The notes beneath the pieces were generated by a model. It searched no databases. It saw only the letters and a list, made by a program, of their open reading frames with translations, and was not told where the DNA came from. Positions 62,853 to 63,569 of a stretch of 64,000 nucleotides of DNA are shown here, piece after piece; the stretch's first letter is position 1; every line of letters begins with the position of its first letter. The position numbers and the translations under genes were made by a program. Origin of the DNA: Escherichia coli (GTDB lineage Bacteria; Pseudomonadota; Gammaproteobacteria; Enterobacterales; Enterobacteriaceae); assembly GCF_003334335.1 (NCBI RefSeq), contig NZ_QOWQ01000013.1, one strand, 5' to 3'.

Positions 62853-62948
62853 ACAATTTCAGCCTTGTAGCCTTTCAAGGGTTTTGTGTGGGTACAAACA
62901 TTATCGAATCGGGGTATAGCCGCAGCTGTAGCTGTATCCACATCAGTA

Positions 62949-63078
62949 AGTTGATGTAGGTTGACTTAGGTTGAGCGAAAAATAGCGAAAAGCCTTGTGT
63001 GGCGCGGATTTCAGTCATAAAAAAACGTCCGTTGATGTCTATTGATGTTCCGATGGTGCGAAGGTGCGAAGGTGCGAA
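62949..63078. repeat. Cluster of short direct repeats: three (A)GGTTGA units at 10-bp phasing, TTGATGT units, and (GGTGCGAA)x3
   Basis: aagttgatgt aggttgactt aggttgagcg at 62949-62978; gttgatgtct attgatgttc at 63031-63050; ggtgcgaa x3 at 63055-63078. Confidence 0.7.
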
Positions 63079-63569
63079 GGCCGGACTCAAACATGTGACT
63101 TAACCTCATGATTTAAAATTGTTAATAATAAACAATATCATCTTATACCAACACAGATACCAACACGAAAAATCACTGGTTTTCGGCATCGAACCAAGAC
63201 AATCAGCTCCTGATTGAGATACCGAGCTCTGTTACTCGTCATCTTCCTCGACAGGCTTCATTGCATCAAGTAGTACTCGCACCATCGCGATAGAACCAAT
63301 CCGGATAAAAGCATCTTCTCCATCTATATCTGTTAACTGATATCGCTCACTTGATGCCGGATAATTGTGTCGATTTGCAGCAGTGAACTCTTTCGTACAG
63401 CCAGAATGCGGCGGATGCTGGTTGAGCAGATAACGTCCGTATGCCCGTTGACCACTTCCGGACGGGAGATTGTGATATCTGACATAATCGATATTCCTTT
63501 TTGCAGATAAATGAAAACGCCAGCCCTGTGCAGGCTGGCGTCAGAGGAATGAAGTCTGGTGAGTGAGCT

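Follow-up and report, generated by a model that had tools for sequence, protein, structure and literature searches.

Short direct repeats crowd together at positions 62920-63080 of a 64,000-nucleotide stretch of Escherichia coli DNA (hereafter the window), and an earlier note, made from the letters alone, had read them as an array of binding sites that no recognizable gene explains. The question raised by this locus is what these repeats are and how they came to lie next to each other. We propose, with a probability of about 85%, that the region is a composite and decaying site-specific recombination junction at the integration hot spot leuX, the gene for tRNA-Leu(CAA). Judged by comparison of sequences, the four repeat classes are unrelated to one another and happen to be neighbours at the boundary of a genomic island, and the repeats would be an ordinary feature of such a place, namely a decaying att junction between tandem leuX islands. 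The statement that no gene explains them does not stand: leuX and the att site of an island account for the repeats.

Genomic context

The window belongs to the E. coli chromosome, positions 62700-63300 being 99.8% identical to many complete genomes, including that of strain O26:H11 11368. In this strain the gene order is fim, nanC, nanM, nanS, an HNH endonuclease gene and a fragment of a gene for a phosphorothioate-DNA-binding restriction endonuclease, followed by the repeat site; to the right of the site come gene fragments and then distal genes of a CP4-type island, coding for DUF957, DUF5983, CbtA, YeeU, a JAB protein, an antirestriction protein, DUF932 and Ag43. The leuX gene of O26 11368, with an adjacent P4-like integrase gene, lies about 59 kb further right and has the same orientation as the relic core described below. 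Fuller versions of the island to the left, with integrase and defence genes, are present in EDL933 and S19-141. The features that we were able to recognize in and around the repeats are listed in Table 1.

A tRNA gene scan of the window gave no tRNA gene, leuX itself lying outside the window, and an Rfam scan of the window gave two chance-level matches only; both scans miss the relic of leuX because it is too short and too damaged. A 71-codon open reading frame (62875-63090, minus strand) was considered and rejected as a gene, as it spans the tRNA relic and the terminator and is unannotated in RefSeq genomes.

Table 1. Features recognized at the junction and in its left flank (positions in the window; functional assignments are proposed from sequence comparison).
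Feature	Position	Strand	Basis or remark
HNH endonuclease gene, probable remaining cargo of the fossil IntB-type island	61638..62288	-	RefSeq annotation, co-linear O26 11368
Restriction-endonuclease gene fragment, probable cargo of the fossil IntB-type island	~62425-62574		RefSeq annotation of O26 11368
Fossil integrase-proximal (P) arm of an IntB-type leuX-integrating element	62865..63053	-	Homology to the leuX-int spacer
Inverted probable integrase arm-type repeat GTGGGTACAA	62888..62897	+	Just upstream of the int ribosome-binding site in intact loci
TTCGATAAT block, nearly invariant in the family	62900..62908	-	Columns 200-208, 1.3-2.0 bits, 74 distinct loci
Two tandem probable arm-type repeats, TGTGGATACA and GCGGCTATACC	62913..62942	-	Spacer alignment and co-variation
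Three GTTGA units (TCAAC on the int-sense strand), candidate binding array	62950..62974	-	10-bp spacing
Relic of an element-borne intrinsic terminator of leuX	63019..63040	-	GACATC-AACG-GACG, then T7
Relic 3' end of tRNA-Leu leuX, putative att core	63054..63088	-	Match to the leuX 3' end and to the P4 attP core
Putative distal (P') arm of the CP4-like leuX island extending to the right	63089..63170	-	
Two tandem 12-bp probable arm-type repeats ATACCAACAC (minus strand GTGTTGGTAT)	63145-63154, 63157-63166		Spacing 12

The repeats in the window

Of the three GTTGA units, the first starts at 62950 and the others follow at 62960 and 62970, a spacing of exactly 10 bp, as had been described; of the longer unit given for them, (A)GGTTGA, the form AGGTTGA is present at 62958 and 62968, and the unit at 62950 reads AAGTTGA. 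TTGATGT was found at 63032 and 63042 (10 bp apart), with a further copy at 62951. The sequence AGCTGTAGCTGT, reported just upstream, was confirmed at 62924-62935, and so were three perfect tandem copies of the GGTGCGAA octamer at 63055-63078, an array that Tandem Repeats Finder describes with a score of 53, a period of 8 and 3.8 copies.

A comb of the form GTTGA-N5-GTTGA-N5-GTTGA has one match in the window at 0 mismatches. With up to 2 mismatches allowed, shuffled sequences contained 0.14 matches on average, at least one being present in 12 of 100 shuffles. Judged from the statistics of the window alone, the GTTGA comb is therefore suggestive and not decisive; what places the GTTGA units above chance is the occurrence of the same four-unit comb, in register, in other leuX-integrase spacers of Enterobacterales. 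The weakness of the comb statistics within the window, once mismatches are allowed, would be in keeping with the view that the repeats are chance low-complexity sequence with neither history nor function. This view is refuted by the alignments, which establish base-by-base homology to the 3' end of leuX and to a spacer conserved in Enterobacterales, and we regard it as scarcely credible.

A fossil integrase-proximal arm

Positions 62865-63053 are 75-86% identical to the spacers of SCZE5, K-12 (leuX-intB), EDL933 and S19-141 (alignment A1), and the homology begins at about 62865-62871, a few bases from the position of the int start codon in SCZE5. The homologous spacer adjoins leuX in SCZE5 and stands at an internal junction in EDL933, where a fragment of the integrase gene is still attached to it. 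In S19-141 the order is leuX, a P4 prophage, a relic core, the arm, an intact IntB-type int gene, a defence island (serine/threonine kinase, HerA helicase, type I restriction-modification, McrBC, restriction endonuclease and an HNH remnant) and nanS. The homologues of the region, when checked, do border tRNA-Leu or integrase genes. Beside the fossil arm of the window the cognate integrase gene, present in the homologous loci, is absent, and we consider the arm a relic and not an active attL for this reason. By the same comparison, the integrase gene and most of the cargo of the older island are deleted here.

With the S19-141 integrase as query and one genome per species, an integrase scan confirmed 591 relatives and returned 80 of them, loci with identities of 72-95%, in Escherichia, Salmonella, Citrobacter, Enterobacter, Klebsiella, Serratia, Yersinia, Pantoea, Erwinia, Proteus, Providencia, Photorhabdus and other genera. 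In nearly all of these loci tRNA-Leu(CAA) lies directly upstream, separated from int by a spacer of 205-220 bp. The spacers were aligned in 76 distinct rows (74 Enterobacterales loci, the window and K-12); the 74 loci are phylogenetically related, and counts of conservation among them are not independent.

Read from the tRNA end towards int, an intact arm is composed of the terminator, the conserved blocks CTGAAATCC and CAAGGCTTT, the TCAAC units, the 12-bp repeats and int itself. The two blocks occupy the interval between the terminator and the TCAAC units in the spacer alignment, and a nearly invariant GGTTCGATAAT block is also present in the intact arm. We infer that the TTCGATAAT block (Table 1) is a candidate for the -10 region of the int promoter; a promoter scan of the intact SCZE5 spacer found no consensus sigma-70 promoter. 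Literature searches returned no description of binding sites in the leuX-int spacer.

The leuX terminator and the TTGATGT pair

The two TTGATGT units had been counted among the binding sites, and they are largely a terminator hairpin changed by point mutation. The first unit (63032-63038) overlaps the terminator relic, and the second (63042-63048) sits between the hairpin and the tRNA end. A terminator was detected after leuX in SCZE5, and the intact loci have a strong hairpin and a T-run, their stems (GACGTC/GACGTC versus GACCTC/GAGGTC) differing by a compensatory change. Folding of the hairpin gave -12.6 kcal/mol (z -2.4) for SCZE5 and -15.7 kcal/mol (z -5.8) for K-12, as compared with -1.6 kcal/mol (z +1.15) for the copy in the window, in which the combination that characterizes an intrinsic terminator, a stable GC-rich hairpin and a T-run after a tRNA, is not found. 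On this evidence the terminator copy of the window is a dead relic. The stem sequence GACGTC is retained in three related strains (L092, L094 and L095), and the window has GATGTC; one of the two TTGATGT units is due to this C-to-T change, which also partly accounts for the ruined hairpin.

The relic leuX 3' end and the octamers

The minus strand of 63054-63088 reads GAGTCCGGCCTTCG-CACC[TTCGCACC][TTCGCACC]A, that is, the last 20 bases of leuX, with one G missing and the terminal 8 bases triplicated. The leuX gene of O26 11368 ends in TTCGAGTCCGGCCTTCGGCACCA, and the annotated attP core of phage P4 is TGGTGCCGAAGGCCGGACTC, the 20 bp of the leuX 3' end. A search for the 20-bp core with up to 3 mismatches gave no match, because the difference is a deletion. 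The octamers, which had also been taken as possible binding sites, are instead a strain-variable expansion within the relic tRNA 3' end.

When octamer copy number is compared between strains, as the earlier note had suggested, related strains have 1, 2 or 3 copies. Roughly 2,900 E. coli genomes match the junction. The three-copy form is present in up to 441 E. coli records at 99% identity or more, and the two-copy form, with the same flanks, in up to 59; strain 01G17CRGN001 has two copies between identical flanks, WB61 and S19-141 have one copy each, and 2011C-3911 has two diverged copies. One left flank, together with the three- or two-copy array, is joined to at least 5 different right-hand elements, including a true P4 distal arm (L095) and a P4 variant (L096). 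It follows that the array would be part of the chromosomal side, which is retained at each exchange of elements, and, since the array stays while the elements to its right change, that the crossover would fall inside the common GAAGGCCGGACTC, on the right-hand side of the octamers; this probably places it in the T-arm part of the core. The joining of different elements at the same core is an indirect sign of possible integrase-mediated recombination there.

The region has the further marks of an island boundary: the copy of the tRNA 3' end stands in direct orientation with the intact leuX of O26 11368, the left flank is constant and the right flank variable between strains, and arm-type repeats are found on the element side of the core (63145-63166).

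The one-base deletion (CCTTCG-CACCA) is found in 8 of the 9 relic cores examined at internal junctions, in four E. coli arrangements, Enterobacteriaceae RIT714, Izhakiella, Photorhabdus and Salmonella arizonae, where the deletion affects a full-length leuX-like pseudo-tRNA; the core of EDL933 is the only intact one. The recurrence of this deletion may reflect the survivorship of locked tandem arrays, the existence of variant attP cores, or damage linked to the integrase. As for the extra octamer copies, they likely arose by replication slippage, which we assume here. Both lesions could also have been produced by integrase cleavage as a side effect, in which case the octamer would be the staggered overlap region, or they could have been selected because they fix the adjacent island in place or because its excision would then deprive the cell of its leuX tRNA. 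Tyrosine-recombinase overlap regions have a size range that includes 8 bp, and the same G deletion is shared by cores of four genera whose arms are of different subtypes. A GG microhomology flanks the array, which suits slippage, near-identical strains differ in having 2 or 3 copies, and the occurrence of the same array beside at least 5 elements puts the crossover outside the array, so that we give cleavage or selection very little credit compared with neutral slippage.

Probable arm-type repeats on both sides of the core

In the intact arm, two tandem direct repeats with 12-bp spacing and one inverted copy surround the TTCGATAAT block. The three copies co-vary by integrase subfamily, in the forms GCGGGTACA, GAGTATA and TTGGTA. 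Tandem pairs of repeats are also present about 55-80 bp from the core in the distal arms of P4 and of six loci (L023, L076, L077, L092, L094 and L096), and two classes can be told apart: GGGGGCA (P4, L076, L077 and L096) and TGGTAT (L023, L092, L094 and positions 63145-63166 of the window). The TGGTAT class of the right-hand island matches the P-arm repeats of K-12-type IntB loci. The co-varying 12-bp repeats occupy the positions annotated in P4 and their motif classes recur in distal arms, which makes them the strongest candidates for arm-type sites of the integrase; they would be bound by its N-terminal domain. For the elements with the GGGTACA motif (type A) no distal arm was found, and the assignment is in their case made by analogy.

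In the window a 6-bp duplication of AGCTGT (62924-62935) interrupts the 12-bp spacing of the arm repeats; it corresponds to the agctgtagctgt of the earlier note. The duplication is absent (columns 172-177) from all 74 integrase-linked loci and from the five other E. coli sequences of alignment A1; it is also present in E. coli records that share the fossil arm (L091, L092 and L094-L096).

Is the array a replication origin or a partition site?

The leading idea of the earlier note was that the repeats form an iteron-type replication origin, or a parS site or centromere, bound by a Rep or ParB protein encoded nearby. Short direct repeats in helical phase and an AT-rich stretch at 63100-63140 would be in agreement with this idea. 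The repeat classes, however, trace to separate sources, namely a tRNA end, a terminator, a recent duplication and an att arm. Iteron origins have direct repeats of 17-22 bp and an adjacent rep gene, and here the units measure only 5-8 bp and the annotation of O26:H11 11368 shows neither a rep nor a par gene over 12 kb to the left or to the right. Likewise, centromeres of the parS kind lie beside a parAB-type operon, and no par genes are annotated in the co-linear region of O26 11368. All homologues found are bounded on one side by tRNA-Leu(CAA), or by what remains of its 3' end, and on the other by a tyrosine integrase gene, with no rep or par neighbour.

The searches of phage and plasmid collections lead in the same direction, no origin context being seen among the matches found. 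The phage collection gave one partial match only, in a Salmonella genome contig, and no phage origin was matched; in P4, the annotated ori and crr repeats are located elsewhere in the genome. Among plasmids, 21 of 72,556 records match, and the one match that was inspected is a chromosomal leuX locus (yjgR, lptFG, integrase and defence genes) on a plasmid record. We thus attribute practically no probability to an origin or a partition site.

The TCAAC comb

The GTTGA units of the window correspond to TCAAC units at columns 124, 134, 144 and 154 of the spacer alignment. Among the 74 distinct (and related) loci, all four units are present as TCAA[CT] in 33 and three of them in 22, which makes 55 loci with at least three. 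The window has three units because exactly one 10-bp unit is missing from the ancestral four; one 10-bp unit is also lost in two integrase-carrying loci (L044 and L086), 2011C-3911 has two units, and K-12-type and Proteus-type loci retain about two good units out of four, four being otherwise the usual number where the integrase gene is present. Conservation reaches 1.53 bits in the comb versus 1.15 in the comb spacers, with a mean of 1.24 over the whole spacer, a score that is shared by other placements and leaves the comb only moderately better conserved than its spacers, and for this reason we claim no strong footprint.

Among the four repeat classes, the comb is the sole plausible protein-binding array. 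The reading of the locus as a set of binding sites can therefore be kept for the conserved, 10-bp-phased GTTGA units, as a candidate array, and is given up for the octamers and the TTGATGT pair, together with the origin and partition proposals.

Lambda Xis has the sites X1, X1.5 and X2, and similar arrays are known for P2 Cox and L5 Xis. The TCAAC units, too, are direct repeats spaced by one helical turn in the int-proximal arm, between the core and the candidate integrase arm sites. This is the arrangement of the lambda Xis and 186 Apl arrays, to which the candidate comb has no sequence similarity. Helical-turn direct repeats are stated to be the sites of 186 Apl and other recombination directionality factors (PMC7498355). 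A further parallel is the attL of KplE1 at argW, where a tRNA 3' end, short direct-repeat sites for the directionality factor and arm sites over the int promoter are found upstream of int: it carries five TorI sites with the motif GTTCG, three of them in a closely spaced block, and IntS arm-type sites that overlap the intS promoter beside the tRNA 3' end (PMC2951348). The tRNA, the integrase lineage and the motif (TCAAC/GTTGA in the window) are different, and binding of the directionality factor was demonstrated in KplE1, in contrast to the leuX arm, for which it is proposed here by analogy.

As the layout of the comb is the usual one for sites of recombination directionality factors, a protein of the AlpA/Vis/TorI type would be its most likely binder, an assignment that we make tentatively and to which we give a little less than an even chance. 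In tblastn searches with P4 Vis and an AlpA sequence over 3 kb on each side of int, matches were obtained in 2 of the 80 loci, downstream of int in L089 and upstream of it in L077, and no gene of the Vis/AlpA type was found by tblastn anywhere in the window.

The main alternative, though rather unlikely, is that the comb serves the integrase itself as an additional kind of arm site, or is a target of a host DNA-bending protein such as IHF or Fis, and not of an excisionase or regulator; the identity of the junction would be unchanged. Apart from L089 and L077, no cognate excisionase gene was found near these integrases, ATCAA is part of the IHF consensus, and the comb has the core on one side and the 12-bp repeats on the other, an interval in which lambda likewise has IHF and Fis sites. 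The motif of the comb, nevertheless, is unlike that of the 12-bp repeats and, in contrast to theirs, shows no co-variation with the integrase subfamily; the comb is also absent from every distal (P') arm examined, where the integrase arm sites recur. Moreover, four equal direct units at 10 bp are typical of directionality-factor sites and do not resemble a single IHF site (PMC7498355, PMC2951348).

Relation to phage P4 and to other leuX islands

The attP site of phage P4 and its integration at leuX were reportedly first described by Pierson and Kahn in 1987. P4 (NC_001609) and the junction have the same 20-bp core, and the arms of P4 are arranged alike: on the int side two tandem 12-bp repeats and an inverted copy over the int start, annotated as 'attP arm sequence repeat', and on the other side a tandem pair at 55-80 bp from the core. 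Identity of the IntB-type integrases to P4 Int is about 60%. The arm motif differs, being GGGGGCA in P4, GGGTACA in the fossil arm and TGGTAT in the right-hand island, and P4 is devoid of the TCAAC comb at the corresponding position; in the window, unlike in P4, no integrase gene is left, and the core has undergone both mutation and expansion.

Pathogenicity islands at leuX, such as PAI II of strain 536, and the KpLE2/intB element of K-12 are flanked by direct repeats. As in these islands, a partial copy of the tRNA 3' end marks the distal boundary, and the intB locus of K-12 has a homologous spacer. The junction in the window differs in lying between two tandem islands, of which the inner one consists of the arm and two gene remnants, and in carrying the strain-variable octamer expansion.

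A proposed history of the junction and its implications

In the history that we favour, the relic core at 63054-63088 marks the distal end of the CP4-like island to the right, and has stayed put while elements to its right came and went. The segment 62865-63053 is the integrase-proximal arm of an earlier IntB-type element, which was displaced from leuX as further elements integrated and then lost its integrase gene. In an intact arm, the element supplies a terminator for leuX, the N-terminal domain of the integrase would bind the 12-bp repeats as arm-type sites, and a small AlpA/Vis/TorI-like protein, an excisionase or a regulator of int, may bind the TCAAC comb cooperatively; the factor bound to the comb would bend the arm for excision and control the int promoter. 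In the window, one TCAAC unit is lost, the spacing of the arm repeats is broken, the terminator stem is mutated, and the core has lost one G and gained two octamers.

A more far-reaching version, which we consider improbable, holds both that the TCAAC comb is the docking platform for a possibly trans-acting excisionase or activator common to the leuX IntB-type module of Enterobacterales and that the relic core is a still-active recombination partner, its damage being caused by the integrase or selected. If this were true, clean excision of the neighbouring islands would reconnect leuX with a broken 3' end, at the price of that tRNA for the cell.

For E. coli, the site shows precisely where, at the leuX hot spot, a CP4-like island ends and what is left of an older defence island begins, which is mainly of value for annotation, and its identification as an att junction removes the false lead of an origin or partition site. 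The octamer-tagged relic core may serve as a natural marker, by which the exchange of different elements at one site can be followed. For the wider family, the spacer of about 210 bp between leuX and IntB-type int genes has a conserved and readable architecture in more than 70 species, which offers direct targets for footprinting to those who study mobile elements.

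Conservation of the IntB-type integrase spacer and of relic leuX ends

In species across Enterobacterales, the tRNA-Leu(CAA) gene is followed directly by a conserved spacer and an IntB-type integrase gene, as observed in the 210 bp upstream of each integrase gene in 80 integrase-linked loci (one genome per species) retrieved with the S19-141 integrase. Within this spacer, a GGTTCGATAAT block located approximately 45 bp upstream of the integrase start codon is nearly invariant, and no consensus sigma-70 promoter was detectable in SCZE5, the sole intact spacer scanned.

An identical one-base deletion, CCTTCG-CACCA in place of CCTTCGGCACCA, was identified in eight of the nine relic copies of the leuX 3' end that lie at internal junctions between islands (L023, L074, L076, L077, L093, L007/L009, L004 and the relic core of the window). 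This deletion spans four genera and several arm subtypes and, in Salmonella arizonae (L074), is present within a full-length leuX-like sequence, for which ARAGORN made no tRNA call.

Features of the window discussed in this section
Feature	Coordinates (strand)	Description
uxu-gntP-fim core region	40000-59000	
nanS	60650-61630	
HNH endonuclease gene and restriction endonuclease gene fragment	61638-62574	remaining cargo
Relic leuX 3' end	63054-63088 (-)	one-base deletion
Tandem ATACCAACAC repeats	63145-63166	two copies, 12-bp spacing

Probable arm-type sites and island cargo

Roughly 60-80 bp separate the ATACCAACAC pair from the relic core. The pair shares its layout with the annotated distal arm repeats of phage P4 and belongs to the same motif class, TGGTAT, as the repeats of K-12-type IntB loci; these repeats probably serve the CP4-like island as arm-type integrase sites.

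E. coli IntB-type integrases adjoin anti-phage defence cargo in EDL933 (L006), S19-141 (L009) and pMTY18781-2 (L097), comprising, across the three loci, Zorya II, a phosphorothioate-DNA-binding restriction endonuclease, McrBC, type I restriction-modification and Dsr1. The cargo left in the fossil island of the window consists only of the HNH endonuclease gene and the restriction endonuclease gene fragment. The gap between nanS and the end of the HNH endonuclease gene is only 7 bp; nanS is apparently full length in the window and is annotated as truncated in O26 11368, 2011C-3911 and S19-141.

L097 (NZ_AP023207.1) is a 93.8-kb record typed as a plasmid, which carries chromosomal yjgR-lptG-lptF together with the leuX-side integrase locus and its defence genes. 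The explanation is either that a piece of the chromosome was captured or that the assembly is in error.

Histories of the window segments

The uxu-gntP-fim core region reached a top identity of only 98.6% among the complete E. coli genomes listed, and five records were found at 99% or above. Since the island junction, in contrast to this best value of 98.6%, matches hundreds of genomes at 99.8-100% identity, the comparison suggests that the core region and the junction have had different histories.
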